Shown: positions 9,282 to 62,492, counted from the first letter of the stretch. The stretch: DNA of 64,000 nt from an uncultured Lentisphaeraceae bacterium (GCA_964440985.1 CAYTWE010000004.1:3092-67091), one strand, 5' to 3'. The notes: a model not told the origin generated them from the letters alone. Program-made: numbers and translations.

Positions 9282-9287
9282 GTCGGA

Positions 9288-31392: not shown

Positions 31393-31401
31393 ATTGTATC
31401 A
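31393..31401 (-). promoter_or_regulatory. Extended -10 (TGATACAAT) 7 nt upstream of the ATG, giving a leaderless transcript.
   Basis: The reverse complement is TTATGATACAAT-gcggcac-ATG. Confidence 0.45.
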
Positions 31402-33624
31402 TAATGAACCGCCGAGGACACGTGCAACGTGCGGAAGGAAGGCGGCGGACAACGCCTTGTATCCGGCGTCGGTCGGGTGGGCTGAATCCGACATCATCCC
31501 GTGCACGATGTCGCCGTTTGCGTCAACGAATCGTCCCCCCGCATTCTCAAAGCTGACCTTCCCGTCATATCCGTACGACGGGATTCGCGACAAAAGCGCA
31601 TTCAGCCTGTCCACGTTCCGGCGAAGCGGACTTCCCGGTGTCCCCGCCGGCAGGGCGCCCATCAGCAGAATGCGCGCCTGCGGCTGGATGCGCCGGATGC
31701 GGCCGATCAGGCCTCTGATCGCCTGCGCCGTCTCCTCCGGTGAATCCGCCTTCCCCTCTTCGTCCGGCACAAGGTTGTTTCTGCCGAGCATGATTACAAC
31801 CAGCTGTGTACGCACGTTCTTGAGTTCGCCGTTGTCGACTCGCCAAAGCGCGTTCTCCGTGCGGTCGCCAGCACAGCTCATGTTCATGACGCGCACACGG
31901 CGGTCGAACATCGCCTTCCAGCGCGGCAGCGTCAGCGAGTCGTCCGTCTCGCCGATGGAGTCGATGCCCGACCACAGATGGAGCGCATCGTCGCCGATGA
32001 ACACGACATTCGGATTCGTGCGCCATGTCTTGGCTTCCGCCAATATGTAGTCATGCCGTTCGCGCCAGTCATAGCCAACGGCCCGTACGTTCTCCGCCGG
32101 CTGCAGGGCACGGCTGGCCGGAACGCCCTCCGGCGTCGGGGCGGCGTTCACGCCCATCCGGCGAAGCCTCGGAATGTGATCGCCCATCCGCCGAAGGAAA
32201 TCGCCGTAATTGAGGGCGGACTTCTCCGACCACAGGATTTCCGCAACGGCGCACAGCCTCGGAAAGCCCTGCCACATAAGCTCTTCCGGAACACGTATTC
32301 CCTCCGACCAGAGAAGCCCCTCCGAACCCAGCACATGACCGGCAAATTCGCCGGGAACGCCGTCTGTCGGATCGAAAGAGTAGACGCGGGAAAGCGGCAG
32401 CCCGCCGCCGTCCGACCGCCACGGATCGTCGGGAATCCCCTGCTTCTGGTCAAGGTACATCAACCGGTTCGGACAGACCACGCAGTCGACGCCGTTCGTG
32501 GCGGCGAAAGCCGCCTTCTCCGTTCCAAGCCAGCACATGGCCGCCGTGTTTCCGCAGATGCCGCCGTCCAGCATCTCCTCCCAGCCAATGGCACGTTTGC
32601 CCTTCTTCATCAGATACTCCGCGAAATGGCGCATCAGCCACGTCTGCAGCGCATTCTCGTCCTTCAGCCCGGCGGACTTGATGCGGGCCTGGCATTTCGG
32701 ACACTTCCGCCAGCGGATCTTCGGACACTCGTCGCCGCCGATGTGGATGAACTCGGAATGCTTGAACAGGCGACAGTATTCGTCAAGAACGCTTTCAAGG
32801 AAGGCGATTGCGCGGTCGTTTCCGGCGCAGTACAGCTCGCGCTTGACGCCCCATTTCACGTCCACGCGGCGTTCAAGCCGCTCTCCAAGGCACGAGAATT
32901 CCGGATAGGCCGTAAGCGCGGCCCTGGAGTGTCCGGGAATCTCAAGCTCCGGCACGATCTTGACATGATGCCGTTCCGCGAACTCGACGATCTCCTTGAT
33001 ATCCTCCTCCGTGTAGAAATGCGGCCCGTACCGCCGTCCGTCGCCCTCAGCGGAGTTGTCGAAGCGCGGACTTTCCGCCCGAACTGCCCCCCGTGCCGTC
33101 AGCTCCGGCCATTTCCGGATCTCGATGCGCCACCCCTGGTCTTCCGTCAGGTGCCAATGCAGAACGTTCAGCTTGTTGAACGCCATGGCCTCGATTATCT
33201 TCTTGATCGTCTCCTTGCCGAAGAAATGGCGTCCTTCGTCCACAAGGCAGCCCCGCCAGCGGAAGCGCGGCCAGTCCCGTATGCGGCAGAACGGATACGA
33301 GACCTGCTCGCCCACGCCCTGCGCCAGCTGCCGAAGCGTAATCCGCGCATAAAACGCGCCGTCGCCGTCCGACGACGCCACGCGAACGCCACTGGCATCG
33401 ACCGTCAGTTCATATCCCGCTTTCGGCTGGGCCGCATCAAAGACGTCAACCACATTTGTGCCGCTGTACATCCCGTCACGCCATTCAACCTGCCGAGGCG
33501 CAGGAACGATCGACGGCAGGATGCCTGTGCCACCGGCACCCGCCCCCGCATATGCGAAAACGGCTACTGAACACGCAAGCGCGCAGACCGCGCCCCTCAC
33601 GGACATTTTCTTTTCACTCATCAT
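31399..33624 (-). CDS. Bifunctional secreted beta-N-acetylhexosaminidase (GH20) fused to a C-terminal SGNH/GDSL esterase domain.
   Basis: GH20 catalytic core (RFRWRGCLVDEGRHFF...LNVLHWHLTEDQGWRIEI). C-terminal VVFIGDDALHLWSG...LLMGALPAG matches SGNH blocks I and III. Signal peptide present. Confidence 0.7.
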   Translation of the reverse strand: MMSEKKMSVRGAVCALACSVAVFAYAGAGAGGTGILPSIVPAPRQVEWRDGMYSGTNVVDVFDAAQPKAGYELTVDASGVRVASSDGDGAFYARITLRQLAQGVGEQVSYPFCRIRDWPRFRWRGCLVDEGRHFFGKETIKKIIEAMAFNKLNVLHWHLTEDQGWRIEIRKWPELTARGAVRAESPRFDNSAEGDGRRYGPHFYTEEDIKEIVEFAERHHVKIVPELEIPGHSRAALTAYPEFSCLGERLERRVDVKWGVKRELYCAGNDRAIAFLESVLDEYCRLFKHSEFIHIGGDECPKIRWRKCPKCQARIKSAGLKDENALQTWLMRHFAEYLMKKGKRAIGWEEMLDGGICGNTAAMCWLGTEKAAFAATNGVDCVVCPNRLMYLDQKQGIPDDPWRSDGGGLPLSRVYSFDPTDGVPGEFAGHVLGSEGLLWSEGIRVPEELMWQGFPRLCAVAEILWSEKSALNYGDFLRRMGDHIPRLRRMGVNAAPTPEGVPASRALQPAENVRAVGYDWRERHDYILAEAKTWRTNPNVVFIGDDALHLWSGIDSIGETDDSLTLPRWKAMFDRRVRVMNMSCAGDRTENALWRVDNGELKNVRTQLVVIMLGRNNLVPDEEGKADSPEETAQAIRGLIGRIRRIQPQARILLMGALPAGTPGSPLRRNVDRLNALLSRIPSYGYDGKVSFENAGGRFVDANGDIVHGMMSDSAHPTDAGYKALSAAFLPHVARVLGGSL

Positions 33625-33641
33625 CAACACCTTTCCTTCCG

Positions 33642-33647
33642 ATTATA
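33642..33647 (-). promoter_or_regulatory. -10 hexamer TATAAT upstream of the GH20-SGNH gene, with a GGAAGGAAAGG RBS.
   Basis: The reverse complement is GGTATAATCGGAAGGAAAGGTGTTGATGATG. Confidence 0.4.
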
Positions 33648-33993
33648 CCGTCAGGCGCAAACTTATGTTCAGCGCCTTTCCCCGGCACGTAAGCGACGGA
33701 TAGAAGAGAACGATCCTTTCTGCGTCTGCCGTGACGGTCGGCGTCTGCTCCGCCCCCAGCACGGGCACCTCACGCTCCTCATGTCCGCCGCGCCGGTCGT
33801 CGAAATAGAGCCGCCACAGCTGTGCGCCGCCCGCCCAGTCATGCCCCGTCGCCTTGCATACGAGCGCCTTCAGTTCGCCCCTGTCTCCGACTTCGACGCG
33901 CACAAGGCCGTTCTCAAGACTTGCCGCCGCCGCTACTGACGCGACGCCGGCCAATGCCAGCGCGAGCAGACCGGTTTTTCGCGAATAATTCAT
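33643..33993 (-). CDS. Small secreted hypothetical protein (116 aa).
   Basis: Signal peptide MNYSRKTGLLALALAGVASVAAAAS. It could be a free-standing N-terminal-like domain or a gene remnant. Confidence 0.35.
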   Translation of the reverse strand: MNYSRKTGLLALALAGVASVAAAASLENGLVRVEVGDRGELKALVCKATGHDWAGGAQLWRLYFDDRRGGHEEREVPVLGAEQTPTVTADAERIVLFYPSLTCRGKALNISLRLTV

Positions 33994-33995
33994 CT

Positions 33996-36900
33996 TCACC
34001 TCTCCCATACCGCGACATCAAGCGGACCAAGTTCCGTCGACTGCGTTGTTCCAAACACGAACCGCCATTTGCCGTTCAATTCGATTCGCTTCCTCTCACG
34101 CGAGAGGTTGGCGAAAAACACGAGGTCGCGTCCATCCGCAGTACGCCCCGTGCGCCACATCACGCCGTACGGCGCCCGTGCGTCGTCCCTCGGCGGCGCG
34201 GCGAGCGCGGCGTAGTCCACCGGACGGTACGGCAGCGGCAGCGTCTGCCGACGCTCGCCGCGTTCGTCCTTCGCAAGCGCCGTCGGCGCGGAGAAGAGGA
34301 GCGTGCCGCCGTCGGCAACGAAGCGTTCGAGCGCAGCGTACACGCGGTCGGAGACGCGTCGTGCGTCGGGAAGCACGATCTTCTTGGCGCCCTTGAAATC
34401 TCCGCGCTCAAGGTCACGCTCCGTGATGAACCGCACCGCCCAGCCGGAGAATGACGCCTTGCCGTAGACGTCGTACAGCGACCGCACGTAGGCGTCGCGT
34501 TCGCCAAACGACGCGACGGAATGGAACAGCCGGAACGGCGGATCGGGCGTACGCCTGAACGCGGCGATCTCCTCCGGATGCGCCCGGCAGTCAAGCGCCG
34601 CACGAAGCGTCGCGTGGTATGTGTTCGCACGCGTGAACGCATACTCGCCGTACGTGTGACGTGTGTTCGCCCACTCCCAGATTGATGATGCGTTCAGCCC
34701 CATGAGAAACGCCAGCACGTTTGAGAGGTAGATTTCCTTCTCGGAATACTCCCTGTACACGCCGTCCACGATCACGTGCGTTTCGTTGTCGGCGATCGGC
34801 TTCTCCGGCGCAACGGAACGCGCAAAGTCAAGCTCGAACCCGCCCTTCGGGAAGTCCATCGCCCATTCACTTCCGTCCAGCCCGAATCCGCCGTCGAAGC
34901 CGACGATGTCGAAGATCTCCCACAGCCGCTCAAAATCCGCCATGACGACAAGCGGATCCAGCCCGGCAATGTTGTAGTGCGTGGAGTAGTGGACGGTCGT
35001 GGGCAGGCCAAAGCGCCGCTTGAGCCAGTCCTGCTGCGGAATCTCGCGGGCGATGTTTCGCTCTAACTGCGCCTGCATCCGTGCGAACTTCCCGCCCTCG
35101 TCGCCCGCCGGCGGCTTGGAGTCCCACTGCTCCGGGAATGACACCTGAAACACGAACGCCGGCGACGGATTGGACGGCACGAGCGAGCCAAGCCAATAGC
35201 CGCGCCCGCCACGATATGCGTTCTGCAGATCGGCGGACGCGACAGCCAGCGGGTCGTGCGCCGTCAGGTCATGCGAGGAGGCGTGCGCCGATCCCCAGGC
35301 GCAGTATACGCCGTTCGTCTCGCAGCGGCGCACGACGTCGGCGTAGTTCGTTCCGCCGATGTAGAAGCAGTTCACGAGGTTGAACCCGGTCTTCGCAATC
35401 CATTCGACGTCCGCATTCTCCCACCCGGCGACGTTCGTCCAGGTGTCAGGGCCAATCAGGAGAATCTCCCGACCGTCAACCTTGAACCCGCCCTCCGACG
35501 GCACGGGACGTACGCCACGCGGATACTTGACCGTCCGAAGCGGCGCAACCTTTCCGTCCGCAATGGCCCTCTGACGCGCCGCGAGTCCCCGTTGCAGCCG
35601 TTCGAGGTCGATGGCATTCTTCAACACGCGCTCATCCATGTAGTGCCGATATCCGTCCGTAATGGCCTTGCGCACATGACCGACGGCGATGTGTCCCTCG
35701 GCATCCAGGTCGCGTCGCATGAATTCCACGAAATAGTCCGTCATCGCCTTGACCGCGATGGAATACTCGTCGTCCTCTGCGACGCGCAGTGCGGCATTGG
35801 CGGCGGCGATCGCGTCCACCCTGCGGCGCAACTCGTCCCGCGTGGGCAGTTTGGCGCGTTCCGGCTCAAATCCCGTCTCTACGCGCACAAGGTCGACGAA
35901 CGGCCACAGTCTCGGGTCACGGCCGCCCAAAACACCATCGGCGACGCCCATCCAGTTCTCGACGGCATCGCCCCGATCCCGATCGACTACGCAGACGTTG
36001 AAGCGGATTCCGTCCTCACGCCGCATCCCGGCCTCGGCAAGTTCACGCCACTGGAATCTGACCTTAACCTCATCACCGGGATAGAAGCGCTCAAAGGTGC
36101 GCCCGCCAGCCGCATCGGCAAACACGACATGGACGCCGTCATCCTTTGTCTTCACGTCATCAGTGACGCGCACATCAACGTCAATGCCCTGTTCGGTCGC
36201 CGTCACGTGCGCGACGAACGAAAGATCGGAAGCGCCCGACCATGTCGGAGACGCGAGCGGACGATAGTCCTTCGTCTCGCTCCGACTGATTTCGCCGCCG
36301 GCAACGCCCCAATCGCACGCACGCAGCGCACGGAGTGCATCGAGATCCCTCGCGCCGCCTACGCGGCCAAACGCGATCGACTGCGCAATGCGTTCGCCTG
36401 GGGCGACGCCCCTTCCCTGACGCGGCGCGGGAATGTCGGCCTGGGCGCAGAACGTGCCGGGCTTGCCGTCACCACGCGGACAGAACGTCCCGAACTCGCG
36501 CCCCATGTACCACGTCTCGCCGCCAGTCGTGCGTCCAAGCACGTACCGCCCGGCCTTCACCTTGTAGCCGCCATCCTTCGACCGGAACTCCTTCGTCGTC
36601 GGGAACGGCGCAAATTCCGTCCCGTCAATGGCGTAGTCCGTCACCTCAAGCCCCATCCCCATGTTCCACGATATGAAATGGAACGGCTCCAGCACGTTCA
36701 GGCGCGAGGCCGCCACCACGCCGGGTACGCCCGGCTTCATCACGTAGTCTGTGACGAGCCGCGCCTTGGACCACGGTGTCGGCTTCTTGCCGTGCAGGTA
36801 GTCGTGCAAGGACAGCGAACGGTCTGCCCGCACGATGACGACTGGATTTGTGGCAAGCACCGAAAAGACGTCATCGCGCCCGTCGCACACGGCCGCCACC

Positions 36901-37043
36901 ATGCCGTCCGCTCCGGCGACGCGGATGTTCTGCGAGAACCGCCGCGCCCATCCCTTTGCATCGTCAATCGGCGAACCGGCCATCGCCGGGAGCACCAGCA
37001 CCGCAGCCAGCCCGGCAACGAACGCCCTCAACACCACATTCAT
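33996..37043 (-). CDS. Large secreted hypothetical glycoside-hydrolase-like protein (GH42/beta-galactosidase-trimerisation-like C-terminal region).
   Basis: Signal peptide MNVVLRAFVAGLAAVLVLPAMA, 1,015 aa. The C-terminal segment KIVLPDARRVSDRVYAALERFVADGGTLLF resembles glutamine-amidotransferase-like trimerisation domains of GH42. Confidence 0.4.
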   Translation of the reverse strand: MNVVLRAFVAGLAAVLVLPAMAGSPIDDAKGWARRFSQNIRVAGADGMVAAVCDGRDDVFSVLATNPVVIVRADRSLSLHDYLHGKKPTPWSKARLVTDYVMKPGVPGVVAASRLNVLEPFHFISWNMGMGLEVTDYAIDGTEFAPFPTTKEFRSKDGGYKVKAGRYVLGRTTGGETWYMGREFGTFCPRGDGKPGTFCAQADIPAPRQGRGVAPGERIAQSIAFGRVGGARDLDALRALRACDWGVAGGEISRSETKDYRPLASPTWSGASDLSFVAHVTATEQGIDVDVRVTDDVKTKDDGVHVVFADAAGGRTFERFYPGDEVKVRFQWRELAEAGMRREDGIRFNVCVVDRDRGDAVENWMGVADGVLGGRDPRLWPFVDLVRVETGFEPERAKLPTRDELRRRVDAIAAANAALRVAEDDEYSIAVKAMTDYFVEFMRRDLDAEGHIAVGHVRKAITDGYRHYMDERVLKNAIDLERLQRGLAARQRAIADGKVAPLRTVKYPRGVRPVPSEGGFKVDGREILLIGPDTWTNVAGWENADVEWIAKTGFNLVNCFYIGGTNYADVVRRCETNGVYCAWGSAHASSHDLTAHDPLAVASADLQNAYRGGRGYWLGSLVPSNPSPAFVFQVSFPEQWDSKPPAGDEGGKFARMQAQLERNIAREIPQQDWLKRRFGLPTTVHYSTHYNIAGLDPLVVMADFERLWEIFDIVGFDGGFGLDGSEWAMDFPKGGFELDFARSVAPEKPIADNETHVIVDGVYREYSEKEIYLSNVLAFLMGLNASSIWEWANTRHTYGEYAFTRANTYHATLRAALDCRAHPEEIAAFRRTPDPPFRLFHSVASFGERDAYVRSLYDVYGKASFSGWAVRFITERDLERGDFKGAKKIVLPDARRVSDRVYAALERFVADGGTLLFSAPTALAKDERGERRQTLPLPYRPVDYAALAAPPRDDARAPYGVMWRTGRTADGRDLVFFANLSRERKRIELNGKWRFVFGTTQSTELGPLDVAVWER

Positions 37044-40033
37044 CTTTCAACCTCCCTGATGGCGACGATGCACGGACGCGCCTTTGGATTCCACCGGAAC
37101 GAGGCCGCCGTCACCGTCTTGCCGGAGAGGACGTCATGGATTGACGCCTCGGCGGGCAGCCGCAGTTCCAGTTCGGTATCCGGCTGTGCGTTCAAGGCGC
37201 GTGTGCCTTTCATGACATTCCCTGCGTCCACGGCCCTTCCCGTCAGCAGCAGGATTCGCCGCCCGTCCGCCGTGCGAAAGTCCCCGCACGTGATTCCCGT
37301 CGCCACGCCGCCGCCCGACATCATCGCGATTTCATAATCGGCCTTCACGCCGCAGTCCGCAAGGAAATCGCGCAGGCCATCGACGAACGATGCATCATTC
37401 ACGTTAGGCAGCGACGGGCAGCAACGGTCGAGCATTCCGGCGAACGATGCTGTCGGCACACCGCGTTCGTCATGCCGGCCGCAACGGTCGTCCCCGACGA
37501 CAACGCCGCCGCGTGCGCGGAAGTCGCGGATTGCGTTGCGCGTCGTCTGCGACAGCGCCCAGCATTCCGGAAGGACAAGCACCTTGGCCGTTTCAAGCCG
37601 TTTCGCCAGCTGCGGCTCGCTCGTGTAGTCAAATCCGAGACGCAGCGTATGAAGCACCTTCTCCCACTGCTCCTGCGAACGGAACCAGTTGAGGTAGTGG
37701 CTTCCCTCCTTCTTTCCGCGAGCCTCCCAGTCGAACTGAAGCGGATCGTCACTTTCAAGCCAGGCAATGCCCATGCCGCCCTGCGCATAGAGGATGGTGA
37801 CGGGCATGGGTGCACGTTCGGCGGCGTTGATCAAGTCGCCCCATCCGCCGGAGACGAGCGGCGCAAGCGCGGCCTTCAACCGTCTGCCGTTCGCGCTCAA
37901 CAGTCCGTCCTCCGATAGATAGCCCTCACCCGTCGCCACGGTGTGCTGGACGGAACCGTACAGCATGATTCCCGTCGCGCCGTTGTTGACGGCGCTCCAG
38001 ACATCCATCTCGATGTTGTCGTAGTTTCCGTACCCAAGCCACGTCAACACGGGCGCACCCTTCCGCTTGAACGAGCGCACATACGCGCTCGGCCCGTAGT
38101 CCTGCCCTGACGTCCGGTTCGGGACAATCTTCGACGGATCGATCCCAGCCATCGGCGTCATCCACGTCCAGTTCGGCTGCCCAGTGGAGATGCGCGGGTT
38201 CTCGCGTCCGAACACATCGACCGCGACCTTCGACACCTCCGCGAGGACATCGTCCATGAACAGCCTGAACTCAAGCCATGACGCATAGTTCCGGTCGCCC
38301 TTCCGGCGGCGGCCGCGCATCTCGTCCGTGAGCGACGGCACAACGTCATCGAACGTCGCAAACGCCGTTCCCCATGCACGGTTCAGCGCGGCGACATCGC
38401 CGTACTTCGTGCGCATCGCGTTCCTGAACCGTGCAAGGCACGGCGCCATGCGGCACGGCTCAGAATCCTTGGCATGATAGTTCATCCAGGGCGCCGAGAG
38501 CGTCATCTCGTCTCCGATGGCATACGCGAACGGCTCACGTCCACGGGCCAGACGCGCATAGGCGGCAAACCCCGCCTCGGCGGCGGGCTTCCACGTGGCG
38601 TCGGAGAGGCATCCATTGCGCCAATGCTTCTTGACGGGATCGTTCCCGTAGCACGTACGCCCATGGACGCCCTGCTCCTGAAGCGCCGCCTCCACAATCG
38701 GATTCTCGCGGTTGACGATTCCGCCCCATCCGTCCGTCCACGCGAAGCCATGCTTCGCCGCATCGTACGCGCCGGGCATCCAGCAGTTTATCGCGTTTAT
38801 TCCGATGTCGCGCATGACGGGATAGAACTGCCGCCGGTAGTGTATCGGCATCCACAGATAGCCGGCGACTACGAATTTCCTGCGATCTTCAAAGCACGGG
38901 CGGACGGACAGCGGCGCGTCCGGCGTGTGCGTCCACGGCACGACCTCAAGTTCCCTGTCGAGAATGAGATCGGCGTACAGCAGCGACCACATCTCATTGT
39001 ACGGATAGCCGGCCTGTCGCTCATCGAAGTCGCTGAGTTCACGCGTCAGGTACACCTCATCCACCTCCGGCCAGATGGCGCTGCGGAAGAAGACGCGGCC
39101 GCGCAGAAGCAGCTCCACGACCATGCCGTCTCCGAACCGCCCCTCCGTGAGACTCGCGATTCCGTACCGGCCGCATCCCTTCGGGGAGATGCGCGAATAG
39201 TCTACGCCTTGCGGGAGCTCTCTTGGACGACCGAAGCGCCGGCCATATTCGGACGAGACGAAGACCGCCCGTCCGCCGCGCCGGACGTACGAGACGACGG
39301 CCTTCTCCTTCTTCTCGAACGCATCGGCGTTCGTTCCGGCAAAGAGCAGGACGTATTCGCCGTTCGAGAACCGTCTCTGCACCGTCTCCGGATCGGCAGT
39401 CGCGCCGTCATTGACGACGTCAACCTTCAGCCCGAATTGCCGTTCGAGGTCTTCTGCAACCCAGTCGAGACACGATCCGGACGCGAACAGCAGAACGCGC
39501 TGCGAAACCTTTTCCTTTGCGAAAACATGCAGCTTGCGCTCCGGGAAGCGTCCGCTCGCAGACGGCTTCCGCTCACGGCGCTTCAGACCCAGATTCAGTT
39601 CGACGTCATCCATCACCCGCAGCGACAGGTTGTTCAACGTGACGTTCACCGGCTTTGATACGAAGATGCGGAACTCGCCATCCTCGATTTTCCAGTCCAG
39701 ATCAACACGATCGCCGACAAACGCTCTGTCACACCGGAAGTCTATCCGCGCTCCAGACCCCGGTGACGACTTGAGTTTCTGTGACAGCAGCACGCCGGGC
39801 GTATCGCGCCGGACGGCGACAAGGAAGTCCTCGCTGAGATAGTCGCGCTCCCGATACTCAAACGCCACGTCGCCGGGGATGCGCCAGTCAGCCGGCGTCT
39901 TTCCGTCAAACGACTTTGCGTCAAGCGAACCGTTCGCAAGAAGTTCAGCGTCTGCGGCTTGTGCCGCGACTGCCGCCGCAAGGCATACGACCGCAACGCA
40001 TAGGCGCCGTGCGCAGGATTTCGTCGCCGTCAT
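37040..40033 (-). CDS. Large secreted hypothetical glycoside-hydrolase-like protein, distantly similar in architecture to the preceding gene.
   Basis: Signal peptide, 997 aa. KVLVLPECWALSQTTRNAIRDFRARGGVVV is a similar C-terminal module. The start overlaps the upstream stop (ATGA). Confidence 0.4.
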   Translation of the reverse strand: MTATKSCARRLCVAVVCLAAAVAAQAADAELLANGSLDAKSFDGKTPADWRIPGDVAFEYRERDYLSEDFLVAVRRDTPGVLLSQKLKSSPGSGARIDFRCDRAFVGDRVDLDWKIEDGEFRIFVSKPVNVTLNNLSLRVMDDVELNLGLKRRERKPSASGRFPERKLHVFAKEKVSQRVLLFASGSCLDWVAEDLERQFGLKVDVVNDGATADPETVQRRFSNGEYVLLFAGTNADAFEKKEKAVVSYVRRGGRAVFVSSEYGRRFGRPRELPQGVDYSRISPKGCGRYGIASLTEGRFGDGMVVELLLRGRVFFRSAIWPEVDEVYLTRELSDFDERQAGYPYNEMWSLLYADLILDRELEVVPWTHTPDAPLSVRPCFEDRRKFVVAGYLWMPIHYRRQFYPVMRDIGINAINCWMPGAYDAAKHGFAWTDGWGGIVNRENPIVEAALQEQGVHGRTCYGNDPVKKHWRNGCLSDATWKPAAEAGFAAYARLARGREPFAYAIGDEMTLSAPWMNYHAKDSEPCRMAPCLARFRNAMRTKYGDVAALNRAWGTAFATFDDVVPSLTDEMRGRRRKGDRNYASWLEFRLFMDDVLAEVSKVAVDVFGRENPRISTGQPNWTWMTPMAGIDPSKIVPNRTSGQDYGPSAYVRSFKRKGAPVLTWLGYGNYDNIEMDVWSAVNNGATGIMLYGSVQHTVATGEGYLSEDGLLSANGRRLKAALAPLVSGGWGDLINAAERAPMPVTILYAQGGMGIAWLESDDPLQFDWEARGKKEGSHYLNWFRSQEQWEKVLHTLRLGFDYTSEPQLAKRLETAKVLVLPECWALSQTTRNAIRDFRARGGVVVGDDRCGRHDERGVPTASFAGMLDRCCPSLPNVNDASFVDGLRDFLADCGVKADYEIAMMSGGGVATGITCGDFRTADGRRILLLTGRAVDAGNVMKGTRALNAQPDTELELRLPAEASIHDVLSGKTVTAASFRWNPKARPCIVAIREVER

Positions 40034-41427
40034 CTCTGCGATGCCTTTCGCTCAAGCACGATGGCAGGACGGAAGGAGTTGTACCCGCCTCTACCCTGCT
40101 TCAGGTAGAACGCCGCCCGTGCGGCGGAGCGGCAGCGATCCGCGCTCGAAAGCCAATCCCCTCCGCGAACCACCGCATGGAATCCGTTTCCGTCAGTCGC
40201 AACGACATTCAGGGGTTCGACTACAGGTTTGTCGCCGAGGTCGTTCCTGCACGTCGTCCAGTCCACAACATCGCGGCAGATCTCACCAGCATTTCCGTGC
40301 ATGTCGTAGAATCCCCAGGCGTTCGGCAGATACCTGCCACCGACACCAGGCTGATTGCCCTGATCCCAAACGCCGTTGCGGCTGCAGTAGTTGCCGAGAA
40401 GATCCATGACCGTATTGGCATAGAAGCCGTCCTTGTAGGCCGTCTTGCCGTTATCGGTGTAGACGCCGTAGTAGTCGCCCTCACCCGCACCTGCGTTCCA
40501 CGAACCGTCCGTTCCGGCGCGGCAGGCGTACTCCCACTGCGCCTCGGTCGGCAGGTCAAGCGTGTAGCCGGGCGGAAGGCAGTTCGCCGCCGACGAACGG
40601 AAACGCCCAAAGAACGATTCCGGATCTACATCCGTGCAGGTGTTGTTCCAGTAGTCCGTCGTGTATCCGCGAAGCGAATACAGGAAGAACTCGTTGGAAT
40701 CGGAACTCAAGAACGTCGGACGCCAGGCTTGCTTGGCATAGTAGTCATCGTCGACCTGCGTCATGACATTCGTCTCCCACACCTTGAACGACTGCGCGTA
40801 CGTCAATTCAAAGAGCGCAAGGTAGAAGTCGTTGGTGAACGTAACAAGATGCCGCGCCTCCGGCAAGGCCGCGATATTGTTGGTATATGCCACCACGCGC
40901 TTTGACTCCGCCTCAGGTGACCCCATGAAATACGAACCGGCCCGGCAGCGACGGAACGCTATCTTCGTTGTCTTGTACACGTCCGTGTTGAACCCGCCCT
41001 CCGGCGGCGCATCCATCTGCTCGGCGGTGTATGTTCCGCCGACCCCGGCCGAAAGATCCATGACAAGATAGCGTCTGCCGACCGGCTGCGCGAGCGAAAG
41101 GCTGAACGTCAGCCCAATGCGCGGTACAGCGGATGTGACTCCGGCGGCGACTGGATTCCATACGAGACGATGCGTCCCGGCCTTCACGTATTCCAGATCA
41201 CCGCTCTGGGCGGCGTAAGCACCGGTGACGTCATTCCCTTCCGGGTCTGTAACCTTGAGAACGACATCCCATCCGACATCGCCGTTCGAGTCGCCGTCTA
41301 TTCTGTACTCGATGACTGTCTTTGCGTTCCATGGCCACATCTGCGAAATCTTCACGGGAGTGACCGTGGCGCCGTACGAGGCAAGGCCCGCCACGGCATA
41401 AACAAGAACGATTGCCGCTTTTTTCAT
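40030..41427 (-). CDS. Secreted FGE/SUMF1-domain (formylglycine-generating-enzyme-like) protein, paralogue A.
   Basis: Signal peptide MKKAAIVLVYAVAGLASYG, central F.MGSPE and C-terminal RGGDW...RSAAR...FRPAIV FGE-domain motifs. TGATG start/stop overlap with paralogue B. Confidence 0.6.
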   Translation of the reverse strand: MKKAAIVLVYAVAGLASYGATVTPVKISQMWPWNAKTVIEYRIDGDSNGDVGWDVVLKVTDPEGNDVTGAYAAQSGDLEYVKAGTHRLVWNPVAAGVTSAVPRIGLTFSLSLAQPVGRRYLVMDLSAGVGGTYTAEQMDAPPEGGFNTDVYKTTKIAFRRCRAGSYFMGSPEAESKRVVAYTNNIAALPEARHLVTFTNDFYLALFELTYAQSFKVWETNVMTQVDDDYYAKQAWRPTFLSSDSNEFFLYSLRGYTTDYWNNTCTDVDPESFFGRFRSSAANCLPPGYTLDLPTEAQWEYACRAGTDGSWNAGAGEGDYYGVYTDNGKTAYKDGFYANTVMDLLGNYCSRNGVWDQGNQPGVGGRYLPNAWGFYDMHGNAGEICRDVVDWTTCRNDLGDKPVVEPLNVVATDGNGFHAVVRGGDWLSSADRCRSAARAAFYLKQGRGGYNSFRPAIVLERKASQR

Positions 41428-42797
41428 CACTTCACCTCCCACACTATTGCCGGACGCACAGTATACTGCGCCGCCGTCGGCAGCCAGCCTTTCCGTCGCG
41501 ATGCGCTGCGGCAGTTCTCCGCGCCGGTCAGCCATCCGCCGCCACGCGCAATGGCACCCATCCTGTTAGAATCGAACCAGACGTAGAGCGGCTCCACGGC
41601 CTCAGCGCTGCCAAGGTCGGCATTGCCGTTGGACTCCACGGCCGCATCGCGGCAAAACTCCTCGCAGTTGCCGTACATGTCATAGAAACCCCACGGATTC
41701 GGCGCGTACCGGCCAACGGTCGATGGCTGCACCGCCTGTCGCCACACGCCGCCGTTTGCGCAATACTGTCCAAGCGAATCAAGTGCCGCAAGATGGTAGA
41801 ACGGCAATTCACGGGAATTGTAGCTTCCGAAGTCAGTGACACGCACATAATCGTTGGAGGTGGGTGAGACACCGCTGGAATAGGCAGTGTCCGTTCCGGC
41901 GCGGCAGGCGTACTCCCACTGCGCCTCGGTCGGCAGGTCAAGCGTGTAGCCGGGCGGAAGGCAGTTCGCCGCCGACGAACGGAAGCGGCCGAAGAACGAA
42001 TTTGGCTCAACCTGCGAATCCGTCCTGTTCCACCATGTGTAGTCCGAACCACGGAAGCTGAGCGGCGTTTCGACCCCGTAGAACACCTTCGTGCTGTCCG
42101 CCGAACACGTCTTGTTCGTCTCCCAGATTCGCGCCGACTGCCCCTCGGTCAGTTCGAAGATCGCAAGCCAGAAATCATTGGTGAACGTGACGAGATGGCG
42201 CGTCTCGGCAAATAGCAGGGTGTTGTCGTTGCGGGTTTCATATGGCTGTGAAACGCGCATTGCCTCGGTCTCCGGCGATCCCATGAAATACGAACCCGCC
42301 TTGCAGCGACGGAACGCCATCTTGCGGGTCTTGTACTCGTTCGTGTTGAACCCGCCCTCCGGCGGCGCATCCATCTGCTCGGCGGTGTATGTTCCGCCGA
42401 CCCCGGCCGAAAGGTCGATTACAAGATACTTCGGCCCGGACGGCTGGCCGAGCGTCACCTCGAATTTGAGCAGTGTTTCGCGGGCGATCTCGCATCCGGC
42501 GACCTTCGGATTCCACCAGATGTCATGTTCGCCGGCGGACACGAACTCGATGTCGCCAGTCTGTGCCGCAAGCGTACCGGTGACGTCGTTGCCGAGCGGG
42601 TCTGTGACCCGAAGCGAAACATCGTACACCTCGCCCGCCGCCGCGTCGAGCACATAGTTGACGCGCACCCGTCCGTCCCACGGCCATTGCTGTCTCACAA
42701 TCTGCGAAACCACCTGCGCCCCGTTCGCCACGCACGCAAACGCGGCAAACACCGCAAAAAGACCAGGAGTTGCCGACATGTTCATTTTCATTGCCAC
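41427..42797 (-). CDS. Secreted FGE/SUMF1-domain protein, paralogue B (tandem duplicate of the preceding gene).
   Basis: Same architecture. YLVIDLSAGVGGTYTAEQMDAPPEGGFNT and the downstream segment are identical to paralogue A, including roughly 115-bp and 85-bp identical DNA tracts. Confidence 0.6.
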   Translation of the reverse strand: MAMKMNMSATPGLFAVFAAFACVANGAQVVSQIVRQQWPWDGRVRVNYVLDAAAGEVYDVSLRVTDPLGNDVTGTLAAQTGDIEFVSAGEHDIWWNPKVAGCEIARETLLKFEVTLGQPSGPKYLVIDLSAGVGGTYTAEQMDAPPEGGFNTNEYKTRKMAFRRCKAGSYFMGSPETEAMRVSQPYETRNDNTLLFAETRHLVTFTNDFWLAIFELTEGQSARIWETNKTCSADSTKVFYGVETPLSFRGSDYTWWNRTDSQVEPNSFFGRFRSSAANCLPPGYTLDLPTEAQWEYACRAGTDTAYSSGVSPTSNDYVRVTDFGSYNSRELPFYHLAALDSLGQYCANGGVWRQAVQPSTVGRYAPNPWGFYDMYGNCEEFCRDAAVESNGNADLGSAEAVEPLYVWFDSNRMGAIARGGGWLTGAENCRSASRRKGWLPTAAQYTVRPAIVWEVK

Positions 42798-42801
42798 ACC
42801 T

Positions 42802-43446
42802 CTATTTGACCGTGATCATAAACGCCCGACGTACGCCAACGGACATGGAAAAAGGCTTGCCGTCCACGACGGCGGTGAGCAGATCGCCTTCGCCGGAGAG
42901 TGCCAGCGTCTGCCAGCCGGGTGCGTCCATCGTCGGAGGAAGCTCTTCGCCTCCGAATGTCACGTTTGATACGCTTTCAGGCAGCAGAACGACCGGATGC
43001 CTGACTGATGCCCGTGACCAATGCCCGCGTCGTGCCTCGTCCTTGACGCAGACCGAATCGCCGACCCCTGTTCCCACGACAAGCCCCAGCGATGCGGATA
43101 CCGCCGATACCTCAGTTCCTTCTGCATCCTGATATGACACAGAGATGGTGATTATGCGTTCGCCTGTGGCATCGGACGGAAGCGAGAACGGAACAGAAAC
43201 TGAATCCGCCGTCACGTCGGAACTGGTCGCAACAGTTCTCCCGTCAACGCTGACGACGGCGCTGACGGCGCCAGTCGGCCAATCAAGCGCAACATCAGAC
43301 GATGCGGCGGTCACAGTCTTCCACGACAGCGACTCCGCCGGATTGACGCAGATCAGCGCGTTGGTTGAGGTGGCCCCGGATGCTCCAGCCACGGCGCACA
43401 GGGCAACTGCCACAGACGCACATAAAGTTCCTGCAATGTTATTCAT
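42802..43446 (-). CDS. Secreted Ser/Thr/Val-rich hypothetical protein, first gene of the FGE-domain operon.
   Basis: Signal peptide MNNIAGTLCASVAVALCAVAGASG, GGAGAAG RBS, low-complexity S/T/V-rich body. Its stop overlaps the next start. Confidence 0.5.
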   Translation of the reverse strand: MNNIAGTLCASVAVALCAVAGASGATSTNALICVNPAESLSWKTVTAASSDVALDWPTGAVSAVVSVDGRTVATSSDVTADSVSVPFSLPSDATGERIITISVSYQDAEGTEVSAVSASLGLVVGTGVGDSVCVKDEARRGHWSRASVRHPVVLLPESVSNVTFGGEELPPTMDAPGWQTLALSGEGDLLTAVVDGKPFSMSVGVRRAFMITVK

Positions 43447-43493
43447 AGCGCTTCTCCAATGGAACAAAGTATGCCTTTAAATAAATTGCAGCG

Positions 43494-43521
43494 ATTATAC
43501 ATTTTTTTTTTCTACGGTCAA
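43494..43521 (-). promoter_or_regulatory. Near-consensus sigma70 promoter TTGACC-16 nt-TATAAT whose spacer contains an A10 tract; candidate phase-variable promoter of the secreted-protein/FGE-domain operon.
   Basis: Reverse complement of 43516-43521 is TTGACC; the spacer is GTAG-A10-TG; reverse complement of 43494-43499 is TATAAT. The plus strand shows T10 at 43502-43511. Confidence 0.55.
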
Positions 43522-43542
43522 TCCATCTGCGAAAGCTGTCCA

Positions 43543-44607
43543 TTATTGCTCTTGACGCTTCAGGTGGCGGTCGAGAAAGACGTAGCCGGTCTCTGTTGCG
43601 GATGGCGGCGGACGGTGTCCCTGTGCGTGATTCACGAGTTTCAGCCTTTCTGGGTTGCGTTCATATCCGGAAGCCCTGCGCATGAGCGCACCGCTTGAAT
43701 CGTCATCATAGCGTCCGGCTATCAGGCAGAACGGTTTGCCGCCCGAAAGTGAGAGAAGCCCCGCATGATCCATGCCTTTGGCGCGCACTTCGTCAAGTTT
43801 TCCGCCCCAATACCACACATCGCTCCAGTTGGACTGATCCCAGCGAATCCCGAAATCGCTTGCGACAATCACCTTTATGCGCGAATCGATGCACCCCGCA
43901 TAGAAAGCCATCTTGCCGCCGAGCGAATGACCGATGATTCCGATGCGGTTGGTGTCTACACGCGCATCCTCGCAGAGCAGATCGATGAGAAGCCGCGTAT
44001 CGAACGCAAGCTTTCCGATGCCGGTCCAATCCGGATGGTCTGCGAGAAGTTTTCGTCCCGCGTGTCCCCATTTCGCCCACTGGTCTTTCGGTGCATTTGC
44101 CGGGTCGTACATAAGGTGGTAGGCGTCCGCCGAAATTGTCACATAGCCGCGTTTCGCGAGATCCGACATGTACGACACGGCGGCATAGAACGTCAGGTTC
44201 GTTCCTGATGGAGCGAGCGGAGAATCTGCACTCCCGGTTCTCGGATCGAATCCAAGCGTCGCCTCCGGAAAGTAGAACGGGACAACAACCGCCGGCAACG
44301 GATATCGGTCTGCGCCGACTTTCGGCACCGCCATCATCACACGCTGTTCCGTGGATGGGCCGTTGGCCTGGCGGAACTCCTCGACGTCAAACTCTGTGAA
44401 CCGGTACACGCCGACCTTTTCCACTTTGCGCGGAAACGCCGCATACGACGGCGGCGCTTCGATGTATGCCCCCCAATCAGATGCCGACGGCATCGATGCA
44501 CGCTTCACTTCATTTGGGGATGCGCATCCCGCTGATGCTGCGCCAAACGCAAGAAGCGGTATGCATCCTATCAGCAAGGCACATCTCTTCATGAGGACAT
44601 GATTCAT
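43543..44607 (-). CDS. Secreted alpha/beta-hydrolase (carbohydrate-esterase-like).
   Basis: Signal/lipobox-like N-terminus and nucleophile elbow GHSLGG. Coupled ATGA overlap with the upstream CN-hydrolase gene. Confidence 0.55.
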   Translation of the reverse strand: MNHVLMKRCALLIGCIPLLAFGAASAGCASPNEVKRASMPSASDWGAYIEAPPSYAAFPRKVEKVGVYRFTEFDVEEFRQANGPSTEQRVMMAVPKVGADRYPLPAVVVPFYFPEATLGFDPRTGSADSPLAPSGTNLTFYAAVSYMSDLAKRGYVTISADAYHLMYDPANAPKDQWAKWGHAGRKLLADHPDWTGIGKLAFDTRLLIDLLCEDARVDTNRIGIIGHSLGGKMAFYAGCIDSRIKVIVASDFGIRWDQSNWSDVWYWGGKLDEVRAKGMDHAGLLSLSGGKPFCLIAGRYDDDSSGALMRRASGYERNPERLKLVNHAQGHRPPPSATETGYVFLDRHLKRQEQ

Positions 44608-46712: not shown

Positions 46713-46800
46713 TGGCGGAGGGGGGGGGATTCGAACCCCCGGTGGACTTGCGCCCACACAACCTTTCCAAGGTTGCACCATCGACCACTCGGACACCCCT
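46713..46800 (-). tRNA. tRNA-Ser (anticodon GGA), 88 nt with a long variable arm and an encoded CCA.
   Basis: The reverse complement is GGAGGGGTGTCCGAGTGGTCGATGGTGCAACCTTGGAAAGGTTG...GGGGGTTCGAATCCCCCCCTCCGCCA. The anticodon loop is uuGGAaa. It has a type-II tRNA cloverleaf. Confidence 0.85.
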
Positions 46801-46818
46801 CCAAACGAAAAACGGCAC

Positions 46819-55869: not shown

Positions 55870-57288
55870 TCACTCGCTGTCTTCAATGTGGAACGCACCG
55901 AGCGGAAGTCCGGCCTCGTTCATCAGATAGCCGCGCCATGGACGCGAATGGAGATAGCGAAGCTTCTTCGGATCCTTCACTTCGGGCGCAAACACAACAA
56001 GCTCCTCCCCGACGATGTCACCGCGATATTCAACCCATGCGGCGTCAAGCTTCTTGAAGTTGCCGATCTGCGCCTTGACCCATTTGCCGTCCGCGCCGGC
56101 AACCTCGAATCCGTATTCCGCACTTTGCGCCGGATCACGGTGGATGCGCCACTCCGCCTCATATGCAGACCACTTCTTTACGTCGTTGAACCTCATCACA
56201 AACCTGCCGTCCTCAATCTTCCACGATTTGAGCGTCGGCGAATCAGCAACGATATCCGCAAAACCGTAGTCGCGCTTCAAGGCAAGAAGCGCAAGACGCA
56301 GCCCTGGCGTCTGCTTGTCGTTCGGATGTATGTCGTGCAGATTCCCCAGATCGCAAAGAACCGCCATTCCGGCATCAGGTTCACTTTGCGCAAACCGCTG
56401 CTGAACCTCCTGCATTCGAGGCACATCGGCACTTCCCCACGGACACAGCTGGCAGAAGTAGAGCTTCATGCGCGGGTTCTCGAAAATGCGCTTCCAACCG
56501 CCGAGAAGAGCCTCCATGCGAGCGCCATAGCCATCAATTACGCCGGGGCCGGCGTGCGTGTTGCTCTCGCCCTGATACCATATCGCCCCGCGCAGGGCGT
56601 ACGGCACAATCGGGTTCACCTTGCCGTTATGGTACTGGGACGGCTTCTGCCCGTCTGTCTTCTCGCGTCCCGGCGGCGGAGCGAACCTGCAGTCTGGAAT
56701 CCACGTCTCAATGTCCGTTGCGCCTACATATGCGCCAAGGAGGCCGACAGGGATCTTGAGCGTCGTCTGGAGATAGTACCCATACCAGAGAGCCACAGCG
56801 GAAAATCCGCCGGAAAGGCAGAACTGCGGCGTGGCGCGCCTCCACTGCACGTTCTCATCCGTCAGCGGAACGTCGCTCCAGCCGTTGCCGAGATGTGCAC
56901 AGCGCAGAAGCGGCAGGTTCATTATCTGTCCAATCGCACCGCCAAGCCGATCGCGGCCGCGTGGAGAATCGCTCCAGAACGGAATGCCCATGTTGCTCTG
57001 TCCGGAGCACAGCCAAACCTCGCCGACGAGTACATCCTTCACAGAGACGCCGTTCGCCGTCAGCGTCCGCCCTTCGCAGCAGGCGTCCATCGGATCAAGA
57101 TCCACACTCCAGCGTCCGTCCGCAGTCGCCGTCGCGGTTTTTGTCTGTCCGGCAAACGCCACCGTCACAGTTTCGCCGGGAGAGGCCTTGCCCCAAATCG
57201 GCACCTTCGTCTCTCGCTGCAGAACTGCGCCGTCCGTGAATGGTGCGGCAAGCTTCACCGCCGCAAGCAGAATCGTGATTCCGTTCAT
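55870..57288 (-). CDS. Sialate O-acetylesterase (SASA/DUF303 family).
   Basis: N-terminus FTDGAVLQRETKVPIWGKASPGETVTV...RWSVDL and the catalytic block VWLCSGQSNM are typical of sialic-acid 9-O-acetylesterases. Signal peptide present. Confidence 0.8.
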   Translation of the reverse strand: MNGITILLAAVKLAAPFTDGAVLQRETKVPIWGKASPGETVTVAFAGQTKTATATADGRWSVDLDPMDACCEGRTLTANGVSVKDVLVGEVWLCSGQSNMGIPFWSDSPRGRDRLGGAIGQIMNLPLLRCAHLGNGWSDVPLTDENVQWRRATPQFCLSGGFSAVALWYGYYLQTTLKIPVGLLGAYVGATDIETWIPDCRFAPPPGREKTDGQKPSQYHNGKVNPIVPYALRGAIWYQGESNTHAGPGVIDGYGARMEALLGGWKRIFENPRMKLYFCQLCPWGSADVPRMQEVQQRFAQSEPDAGMAVLCDLGNLHDIHPNDKQTPGLRLALLALKRDYGFADIVADSPTLKSWKIEDGRFVMRFNDVKKWSAYEAEWRIHRDPAQSAEYGFEVAGADGKWVKAQIGNFKKLDAAWVEYRGDIVGEELVVFAPEVKDPKKLRYLHSRPWRGYLMNEAGLPLGAFHIEDSE

Positions 57289-57337
57289 GTCAACCCTTTT
57301 CCTTCCTCTTTGATTTATCTACTCAACCGCTCCATGA

Positions 57338-60300
57338 CTACCGGACAACGATCTGCATCCCGATCGGCGGCATTATCTGTCCGTAGCCTACCGTCCCGGC
57401 CTCGCCGAATGATGCCGGACGCTCAAGAGACGCCGCTCCTACGCGGGCGTAGATGTTCGTTCCGCCAGACACATCGACCACGCCCGCATATGTACAGCCT
57501 TCCTGCGCTTCGGCGGTGCGGCGGATGCGGCAACGCCTTTCAGTTCCGTACTTCGCGGCGTTTTCGACACCAGACCACAACGCAACCCGTCCGCCACCGC
57601 CACAGCCGGAGGCGCTGTTCGCATAGTTTGCGCCATCGCCGCCACGAGCAGATATTCTTCCGCCACCGGAGACGGTGCTGCCGGAAAGATACACGGTTCC
57701 GCCTGCACCGGATGCAACCCTGCACTGGTATCCCTCCGGCAAGGATGCGTCATTTCCGGAATATTTGGAGAAATATCCGCTCATCCACCCGTCGGATGAC
57801 ACCGTGCCGTCAATGTTTATCGACGATTTTGCCTCAACGATGATTGCGCCGCCGCCTGCGCCGCCCTCTCCGTAGCCATACACGCTCCCGCCCATGCCGG
57901 GCGCATCGGGGGCAAACCTGTCGCCAACGGTTGCGGACGCAAGTCCGTTGTTGACGAACGCACCATCGGAACCCACGCCAACGCCGCCAAGCCCGCCATG
58001 CGAACCGCCCGCCGCCTGCGATGAGGTCGCCGCGCCGAATCCCCATCTGTGCGACGCGCCCATCATGCTGTTCTGCGTGGTCGCATCCCACCCACCGGCT
58101 CCACCTCTTCGGTCGGAAGAAAACAGCCCATCGGCAGTCACGTCAAGCGCACCGACCGAAAAATGCGGAACGGAAAGATTCACCGGATCGCACGAAGCGT
58201 AAAGCGTTCCGGCTACCGTCATTGTCCCCGTCACAGACACCTCAGCACCCCATCGCATTGCCGCATTCGTCTCCGCCGCACGAACCTCAACGGTCGCGCC
58301 CTCCGCTATCGTGAAATCTCCGCCGACGGTCAGCCTGTTCACCTCACGACCGCCCCATGTATCGTTCACTGCGCAGCGCATATTCGTCCAGCACACGTTC
58401 CCGATCTCAAGACGAGACTCCGCCGATTCGACCGTCAGGTCGCCGGTCACCTCAAAGCTGAATCCCTCGGCAGGAAACCTCACGTGCCCCCACGACCAGA
58501 CGAAATTCCCTTCGTGGCGGAACGACGGAACGTCAAGCAGCTTTCCAGATATGCCCTTTCCGACCAGACGTCCACGCAACGCCGCATCGGTGATTACAAC
58601 CGTGCCAGGCTCCGCATGTGTATTGTAGCGGTCGAACGTCGCAAGGGTGTCGCACTCGAACTTTTCGTCCCGATAGTAGCCGGGAGCTGCGGATATCTTC
58701 AGCCCATCGACATCCGCCGCCGCCTGCGCCTCAGCATCGGATGTCTGTATCTTCACCATGCCGCCCCCAGCCGCGTGTCCGATGCGCGAGTCATCGGACG
58801 GATAGTTGCCGTTCGCAAGCACAAGCATAGGCGGATATACCGGCGCACCGCCATCACCGCCGTTCGCGGAGATCATCCCGGAACCCTTTATCGCCTTGCA
58901 TGAAATCCATACGCTTCCGCCTGATGCACCGGTATCGTGCTTCTGAGACGTGAGGAACGCCGTCGTTGCATCTGCGCCATCAGCCAGGATTGCGCCGTCA
59001 ACGCTTACGATCCCTGCAGCCTCAATCCGAACCGCACCACCGCCGGAATGCGATTCGCCGCTTCCCCACTTCGATGGGCAGGTGCCGCCAGAACCTGGCT
59101 CAACCGGCGCATAGGGATCGTCGTATGTCGATCCAGGCATATGCGGTACGGCGTTGAATCCACCCATCCCGCCATGCGACGGCGCGGATTTGCTTTCTGC
59201 CGATGCAGCTCCAGGACCGAAACCTGTAGCATGAATCTGCAGTTCACCATCCCACAGACCTCCGTCCCATCCCTTCTTCGATACGTCAATCGCGCCATCA
59301 TTTGCAATGGAGAGATCGCCACACTTAATCCACACACGCGATTTCGCAGACTCGTTCGTGAACGGCCCGGCACATGTAACAAGGCCTTCAATGCTCACCG
59401 TGTCGGCGTTGACGCTGGTTGTCCAGTTGGAAAGCGTAAGCGTGGCTCCGTCACAGACCACAAGCAAACTAAGACGTGGCGTGGATTCAGAGAGAATCAC
59501 GTCACCTTCAATGATTGCGCTCTCCCCTGCAACTGGCACAACCCCGCCATGCCAGTTTGCCGGATCATTCCAGTCCGAAGATGCGCTCCCACTCCAGAAC
59601 CTACTTGCGCCAAGCACGGTGAGAGTACCGTCACCTATGATGTTCACTCCATGCGCCCCCATATCGTATATGCCCGGCGCAAGCGGCGTTCCGTCAACGG
59701 TTGCGGATATGCACATTAACACCCGCCCTTTGCCGAGAACGAGTTCGGAAGACGAGCCCAGCACAACATTCGTGACGAACAACGGCAGTTTCGATGCCTC
59801 CGCTTCGAATGTCGCATCCTCGGATACGGAGAGCTGCCCAAGCGCGGTGAACCCCGCCGTCCCCGTTACCATAAGTCTGCCACCCTTCACGTCAAATGTG
59901 CCGATGGTCGTGGATACGGCGTTGCTGAGGTACAGCGTGGTATCCTGTCCCTCTTTTGGCGTCCATTCAATGCCGGCGGCTCCCGTGAACGCACTCTTGA
60001 ATCCTGATGTGGCACAACCCGACATCCTTATCGATGCCGGTGCCGGAGAAGTCACCACGCCACCATACTTTGCGGTTGCATCCCTCGCTGTGAATCCCGT
60101 CAGCAGCTGGCTGTGTCCGTTCAGGTTTACGCAGCCGTGTTCACGCTCGAAATAGAAGTACGTGACATTCCGCGGCAGCACATTCTCGTCCTCGCATATG
60201 AATGGGGAGTCTGCAACAAAAATTGCGGCCTGACTCGATTCCGTACTGTGGAAATGAACTGTGCTCTCGCTGTCGCCAGATGTCCTGTTCGATCCGGCAA

Positions 60301-61219: not shown

Positions 61220-61264
61220 TGCACACCCCTTTTCTGTTTGACGATCAAATTTACGCAATAGCAG

Positions 61265-62473: not shown

Positions 62474-62492
62474 GGCATAATCTCCCTGCAAA

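Follow-up and report, generated by a model that had tools for sequence, protein, structure and literature searches.

We analysed a 64,000-nucleotide stretch of DNA from an uncultured Lentisphaeraceae bacterium (GCA_964440985.1, CAYTWE010000004.1:3092-67091; the whole stretch is referred to here as the window), and focus on two adjacent minus-strand genes, A (40030..41427) and B (41427..42791), which encode secreted proteins with a formylglycine-generating enzyme (FGE)/C-type-lectin-like fold that lack the first of the two catalytic cysteines. By the names in its enolase cluster, the organism is judged to belong to the Kiritimatiellia. We consider it probable that A and B are old tandem paralogues between which short tracts of DNA have been exchanged by interlocus gene conversion, and that neither of them matures sulfatases. 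Such conversion between the two neighbours had been proposed in an earlier reading of this DNA made from the sequence alone (hereafter the sequence-only reading), and is borne out here by an excess of shared codons, by permutation, by the polarity of one tract relative to sister strains, and by a run of diagnostic sites.

Identical tracts in the paralogues A and B

A codon-aware alignment of A and B contains exactly two long runs of identical DNA. Tract 1 (72 bp, encoding LSAGVGGTYTAEQMDAPPEGGFNT) is found at 42342..42413 in B, the recipient, and at 40984..41055 in A, the donor; tract 2 (96 bp, encoding FRSSAANCLPPGYTLDLPTEAQWEYACRAGTD, a core FGE-fold motif) is found at 41889..41984 in B and at 40507..40602 in A, all on the minus strand. 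Both tracts had been recognised in the sequence-only reading, and both are real and exact, although they are ~15-20% shorter than was given there (~85 bp at 40990-41075 / 42340-42425 and ~115 bp at 40540-40650 / 41880-41995) and slightly shifted. When mismatches are allowed, a repeat finder extends the repeats to 176 nt at 89% and 144 nt at 88% identity. In the proteins the tracts are internal (residues 125-150 and 270-307) and both fall in the most conserved core motifs, the family sharing the invariant motif QWEYACRA. Outside the tracts, 537 of 1161 aligned bases differ (46%) and the two proteins are 53% identical overall, so that the paralogues are not generally kept similar, as had been supposed; only ~170 bp of 1.4 kb have been homogenised.

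The identity within the tracts goes far beyond what the synonymous divergence in the rest of the pair would permit. At conserved positions with degenerate amino acids, the same codon is used in 85 of 170 cases (50%) outside the tracts, as against all 54 of 54 inside them. Shuffling the codon states 100000 times produced same-codon stretches as long as those observed (32 and 25 positions) once at most, and no identical run of at least 72 nt arose in 20000 shuffles of the differing nucleotides.

The history of the tracts was examined by comparison with related loci, namely L001 and L004, which represent two different lineages, L091-L095, a set of close strains that includes GCA_964567665.1, and L002/L003, which belong to a different species (copies in the window are denoted W_A and W_B, and those in L001, L002, L004 and L091 are denoted L1_B, L2_A, L4_A and L091_B). 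The homologues of B recovered comprise orthologues at 94% and 78% identity, the latter being the B of L002/L003, in addition to orthologues of A. Within tract 1, W_B shows 0/72 differences from W_A and 13-15/72 from its own orthologues (15/72 for L1_B), the reverse of the situation in the rest of the gene, where W_B differs from its orthologues by 7-10% (6.7% for L1_B) and from W_A by 46%. This excess divergence of W_B from its orthologues within tract 1 is significant (Fisher p=1.6e-4 against L1_B and 0.027 against L091_B); in the same tract W_A shows only 5-6/72 differences from A orthologues, in line with the rest of its gene. At the residue level, W_B carries the A-type V, T, A, M and A in place of the I, P/T, V, F/L and R of B orthologues. 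Furthermore, across 418 sites fixed differently between A and B orthologues, the A-like sites of W_B number eight and form one uninterrupted series (42401..42366), with B-like sites on either side at 42414 and 42337. Tract 1 is a single A-to-B conversion of 36-76 bp, found in the lineage of the window only, which changed four to five residues; its identity is derived rather than ancestral, since the B genes of the close strains L001 and L091-L095 do not have it.

Tract 2 reflects a broader process. In this tract A and B differ at 0/96 sites in the window, at 4/96 in L091 and at 24/96 in L002, compared with 46-48% in the rest of the gene, and its variable codon reads CCC in both window copies and TCC in both L091 copies. 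Here the distinction between A and B has been erased across the whole clade of close strains, representing concerted evolution. Mechanistically, short-patch, non-reciprocal homologous recombination has copied DNA at those places where conserved core motifs keep enough identity between A and B, probably through RecA-type recombination between sister or intrachromosomal copies, and tract 2 has been homogenised over the LPTEAQWEYACRAG core with loss of the A/B difference in all close strains.

Several points weigh against this account. To judge by the available strains, conversion in tract 2 may have run in either direction and may have happened once or more often, and the within-genome codon match in that tract was observed in two genomes only. 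The GCC state shared by L4_A and L1_B stems from two different lineages, and it is differences between lineages, not reads, that suggest the conversion may be ongoing.

Concerted evolution of bacterial paralogues is familiar from tufA and tufB. Further examples of bacterial interlocus conversion and concerted evolution include the release factors RF1/RF2 (PMC4530459) and cases of long-lasting concerted evolution in prokaryotes (PMC6053082). Conversion of this kind resembles the present case in its short, non-reciprocal mosaic tracts of identity within otherwise diverged paralogues, in the disagreement between tract and flank phylogenies, and in the concentration of exchange where protein conservation preserves DNA identity; A and B differ from it in being adjacent and co-transcribed, in belonging to an uncharacterised secreted family of an uncultured Kiritimatiellia bacterium, and in that exchange has touched only ~12% of the gene. 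As a mechanism, conversion of paralogues belongs to the textbooks; it is encountered here in an unstudied family of secreted FGE-fold genes, and the case is unusually clean, since a comparison with sister strains directly reveals the donor, the recipient and the limits of the tract (36-76 bp).

Operon context, fold and variation

A and B belong to a five-gene operon, C-B-A followed by a GH42-like and a GH167-like gene, transcribed from the minus strand under one strong promoter at 43494-43521. Gene C (42802..43446) encodes a 214-aa protein that is predicted to be all-beta, with a signal-peptide-like N-terminal segment and no match in Pfam or NCBIfam; the product had been described as S/T-rich, which holds only moderately, at 21-22% serine plus threonine. 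The 454-aa product of B consists of a signal peptide, a beta-sandwich (about residues 20-115) and an FGE-sulfatase-fold domain, an architecture repeated in its 465-aa paralogue A. The GH42-like gene (37040..40033) encodes a secreted protein of 997 aa, and the GH167-like gene (33996..37043), the last coupled gene of the operon, a secreted protein of 1015 aa whose C-terminal part matches GH167 glycoside hydrolases. Signal-peptide-like segments are present at the N-termini of all five products, as read by eye, without a predictor.

The co-transcription of C, B and A put forward in the sequence-only reading is upheld; 10 nt separate the stop of C from the start of B, and the stop of B overlaps the start of A (TGATG). 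The proposed three-gene operon is, however, only the leading part of a longer one, the two large glycosidase-like genes having been missed; the stop of A overlaps the start of the GH42-like gene (ATGA), and the junction between the GH42-like and GH167-like genes is likewise an ATGA overlap. Similarly, the gene limits given for C and A stand, but B starts at the ATG at 42791 rather than at a GTG at 42797, and the resulting 454-aa product is exactly on record at NCBI.

In the other species represented by L002, C-B-A and the GH42-like gene stay together within a different neighbourhood; beyond L002, the GH42-like gene is not kept as a partner of C-B-A. The L002 block is flanked by two 371-aa ATPase_2 (PF01637) genes (1050-2165 and 8909-10024), given which the block may have moved as one unit. 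The surroundings of the operon in the window (31399-33630 and 55870-63983) are rich in secreted glycan-processing genes, encoding GH20+GDSL, a SASA-type acetylesterase, a heparinase II/III-like protein, an M14 peptidase and a 1306-aa protein with a faint G8 match.

With respect to fold, A and B match PF03781 at 61.4 and 63.1 bits, respectively (cutoff 23.3), and their first ~120 residues are covered by no Pfam family. Structure prediction, which the sequence-only reading had recommended, resolves B into an N-terminal beta-sandwich and an FGE fold (AlphaFold, mean predicted local distance difference test score (pLDDT) 86.7). A Foldseek search of the PDB with this model returned TvpA of Treponema denticola as the best match (2y3c, E 7e-13), followed by ToxD and PorK, and a profile of 55 relatives matches PvdO (E 9e-27), TvpA (E 8e-25) and human FGE (E 8e-25) about equally well. 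The earlier view of A and B as secreted proteins with a non-canonical FGE fold is therefore upheld by profile, Foldseek and cysteine comparison. A cysteine in the signal peptide of B is absent from the L002 orthologue, so there is no conserved lipobox. In our literature search, no paper on the combined beta-sandwich and FGE-like protein architecture was found.

TvpA resembles A and B in its FGE-type C-type-lectin fold, in having a single cysteine in the GGSW...C segment and in being secreted and non-catalytic. It is a ligand-binding scaffold whose C-terminal variable region is diversified by a diversity-generating retroelement (DGR), and this best structural match, a promoter-spacer homopolymer of A9 or A10 among near-identical strains, and the fact that the reading frame would be preserved in all four B/A and A/B chimeras that exchange through the tracts could yield are the observations that favour programmed diversification, i.e. 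DGR-like or cassette-type variation or ON/OFF phase variation. We regard this explanation as improbable. A DGR was rejected: blastn and tblastn detected no third, template-like copy of any part of C-B-A in the window, only the two paralogues; no reverse transcriptase turned up among the large open reading frames (ORFs) scanned against Pfam; and the tracts are internal to the genes, lying in the conserved core rather than in the C-terminal variable region used by DGRs. A and B further differ from TvpA by their additional N-terminal beta-sandwich. Orthologue ratios of nonsynonymous to synonymous divergence (dN/dS) are 0.09-0.20 for A and B and 0.24-0.25 for C, and an exact look-up of the four chimeras among 15 billion proteins returned none, which is weak evidence as short-read contigs break at repeats. 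The description of these genes as a variable surface module, with chimeric or deleted alleles that could arise between the repeats, is thus without support: the genes are under purifying selection, the converted stretches represent the conserved core and not divergent loops, and no chimeric or deleted allele was found.

The possibility of ON/OFF switching centres on the promoter-like site at 43494..43521 (minus strand), a sigma-70-type TTGACC-16 nt-TATAAT (TTGACC-GTAG-A10-TG-TATAAT) that is the sole 11-of-12 match within 33400-43700 and whose spacer holds the A10 homopolymer at 43502..43511 (minus strand). Promoters made phase-variable or tunable by a homopolymer in the spacer are known from Neisseria, Haemophilus and Bordetella. 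The present site is similar in its 10-nt homopolymer between -35 and -10, and a one-base difference in its spacer (16 or 15 nt) was seen among near-identical strains, which would fit the putative phase-variable promoter of the sequence-only reading. The window, L001, L005-L010 and L093 carry A10; L091, L094 and L095 carry A9, although the B gene of L093 is matched by theirs exactly or with 1 nt of difference. It differs in that two lengths only were seen, each fixed per assembly, that all seven assemblies of the window's strain type carry A10, and that the poly-A tract is absent in the more distant L002. Slippage-tuned expression via the poly-A tract is plausible from no more than these two alleles, and tuning of the promoter by this tract alone is possible. 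Homopolymers of at least 9 nt are rare, numbering four in the whole 64 kb. A G9 run lies within a tRNA-Ser (GGA) gene (46713-46802, minus strand) between a CN-hydrolase gene and argS, and an intergenic repeat at 12717-12775, upstream of a minus-strand gene starting near 12622, is composed of T10, then C15 (12736-12750), then ~12 CA repeats. As a candidate for slippage-driven phase variation, this repeat is stronger than the promoter's A10 tract.

It is also very unlikely that A and B are genuine FGEs serving sulfatases encoded elsewhere, even though they score well above the PF03781 cutoff, their family profile reaches human FGE, and the genomes of Kiritimatiellales carry numerous sulfatases (PMC6388578). 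A and B share with FGE (SUMF1; 1y1e, 2aft) the fold, the Pfam family and the core motifs QWEY(A/S)CR and NxWGLYDMxGN, but the position of human C336, as assigned by spacing, is occupied by Ser in A (GGDWLSSADRC) and by Thr in B (GGGWLTGAENC), and three residues are deleted ahead of the RSAxR motif. The conserved cysteine of the family corresponds by spacing to human C341, leaving only the second catalytic cysteine, and CxxxxC occurs in just 1 of the 55 relatives. FGE is equalled or outscored by PvdO and TvpA. When 37 large ORFs of the window were compared with Pfam, no sulfatase (PF00884) was detected, as the sequence-only reading had stated, and the operon partners are glycosidase-like. In addition, FGE needs O2, as well as Cu, to convert Cys to formylglycine, and the members of the Kiritimatiellales in culture are strictly anaerobic, so that their FGE-domain genes have been described as a paradox (PMC6388578). 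The incomplete pair of catalytic cysteines, the lack of a sulfatase among these ORFs and the glycosidase-like partners together indicate that A and B are not sulfatase maturases; the canonical active-site pair accompanied by sulfatases, which the sequence-only reading had named among the findings that would refute its own proposal, is not what these genes and their scanned surroundings contain. Other FGE-fold proteins with non-FGE roles are PvdO and the lipoproteins PorK, GldK and GldJ of the type IX secretion system (T9SS), among which PorK matches at 31 bits; the NCBIfam matches of A and B to PvdO, GldK and GldJ reach 22-37 bits, far below the equivalog cutoffs of 350-500; for the T9SS families taken alone, 22-36 bits stand against cutoffs of 350-458, and the locus is without T9SS or pyoverdine genes. 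Tandem arrays of 3-5 FGE-domain genes are common in metagenome-assembled genomes (MAGs) of Verrucomicrobia, Planctomycetes and Thermoguttaceae (L033, L041, L085, L031, L036).

Reality and age of the shared tracts

Since the window comes from one 67,804-bp contig of an uncultured organism, and the exact A and B proteins are recorded from that contig only, the tracts might have been made during assembly or polishing, by repeat collapse or by cross-mapping of reads between paralogues in a MAG. This is very improbable. Both genes are full-length, in frame and collinear with their orthologues, and assemblies of other samples behave as they would at true repeats. Twelve Logan contigs (k=31) from other samples carry the exact C protein, and in the six that were read (L005-L010) the sequence stops inside tract 1 of B, at 42384, i.e. 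30 nt (k-1) into the tract, in L006-L010 (five samples), and at 42365 (48 nt in) in L005. Similarly, two Logan contigs with the exact GH42-like protein start within tract 2 of A, L097 at 40536 and L096 at 40558. A de Bruijn graph branches in this manner only at a true repeat, and unconverted strains would not break at tract 1, because the stretch that they share there is at most 24 nt. We conclude that the tracts are true repeats and not the product of assembly collapse, the hazard that the sequence-only reading had singled out. As a practical point, short repeats in a MAG can be validated by where the k-mer assemblies of other samples break.

A comparably small probability attaches to the view that there was no exchange, and that purifying selection combined with codon preference, or an embedded DNA or RNA element, keeps the stretches identical. 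The tracts do encode the family's most conserved peptide motifs, among them QWEYACRA, but B orthologues differ in both codons and amino acids within tract 1, and conserved residues elsewhere share a codon only half of the time. Within tract 2, W_A and L2_A differ at 24/96 positions (0.25), equal to the 0.254 of the rest of the gene; as the tract diverges between species as fast as the remainder, no extra DNA-level constraint lies behind its identity. An RNA element underlying the tracts was rejected, an Rfam scan of 39500-44000 (E <=0.1) having given no match.

Least probable of all is the recent tandem duplication that the sequence-only reading had named as an alternative to gene conversion, by which the tracts are remnants of a young duplicate that otherwise diverged quickly: A and B are adjacent, co-oriented and alike in architecture, but their synonymous divergence (dS) is 1.07 to >3, L002/L003, with a B only 78% identical to that of the window, already have two distinct copies, and tract 1 is missing from B of the close strains L001 and L091-L095.

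The C family and its FGE-like partners

Gene C represents a family of its own. An initial search gave four clusters, and a full HMMER scan with the C profile 167 representative clusters, nearly all of 205-230 aa. A relationship between C and the N-terminal domain of A and B was rejected (hhalign probability 4.5%). The AlphaFold model of C, built from 4 sequences, was unusable (pLDDT 40), and no fold search was made from it. Distant loci were found through a metagenome scan with a 10-sequence C alignment, and in all eight of the eight informative ones a gene encoding a beta-sandwich and an FGE-like domain directly follows the C-family gene on the same strand, with two tandem FGE-like copies in L098 and L103. 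Furthermore, in two proteins, P0232 and P0299, an FGE-sulfatase domain and, after it, a C-family domain are joined in one polypeptide (P0299 also has an N-terminal metallophosphatase domain); these are Rosetta-stone fusions linking the two families. The genes that follow the pair vary, e.g. GDSL+GH95 in L103, a GH20-like gene and a beta-helix protein in L100, and a Laminin_G_3 protein in L101. A different combination is found in P0271 and P0282 (~560 aa), in which extracytoplasmic function (ECF) sigma-70 regions 2 and 4 form the N-terminal and a C-family domain the C-terminal part; these fusions hint that the C-type domain may serve as an extracytoplasmic sensing or binding domain.

These associations raise the possibility that A and B are non-catalytic binding proteins, forming with C an accessory pair for the secreted glycosidases encoded downstream, a role to which we would give somewhat less than even confidence. 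A more general proposal, by analogy, is that the C-family protein and its beta-sandwich/FGE-fold partner form a conserved non-catalytic accessory cassette of Kiritimatiellia-type glycan-utilisation loci, which is tentative and on balance unlikely. Such a cassette would act in substrate capture or enzyme tethering, like the SusC/D-like pairs of Bacteroidota, and would precede interchangeable glycosidases (GH42-like/GH167-like, GH95, GH20-like, ConA-like); gene conversion would keep a core or interface common to the FGE-fold subunits compatible while their loops diverge. The comparison with SusC/SusD loci is an analogy only: both feature a conserved non-catalytic secreted pair followed by changing sets of glycoside hydrolases, but there is no kinship in sequence or fold and no TonB-dependent transporter, and few loci were compared. 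On the opposite side of the balance, the binding or accessory role of A/B and C is one that we only infer, the beta-sandwich domain has no structural match, and most beta-sandwich and FGE-like genes in other genomes of the Planctomycetes-Verrucomicrobia-Chlamydiae (PVC) group are without a C-family neighbour. Of the triad that the sequence-only reading wished to see traced across PVC genomes, the pairing of C with an FGE-like gene holds from C in the eight loci, and mostly not in the other direction.

Together, these findings suggest that genes of this sort annotated as members of the formylglycine-generating enzyme family, which are numerous in anaerobic PVC bacteria, should not be counted as sulfatase maturases. 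This family, whose operon partners here include the C family (~215 aa, previously unnamed), represents a candidate new class of glycan-utilisation accessory proteins and, if the proposal holds true, the cassette of the two would account for why FGE-domain genes "paradoxically" abound in PVC bacteria that are strict anaerobes.

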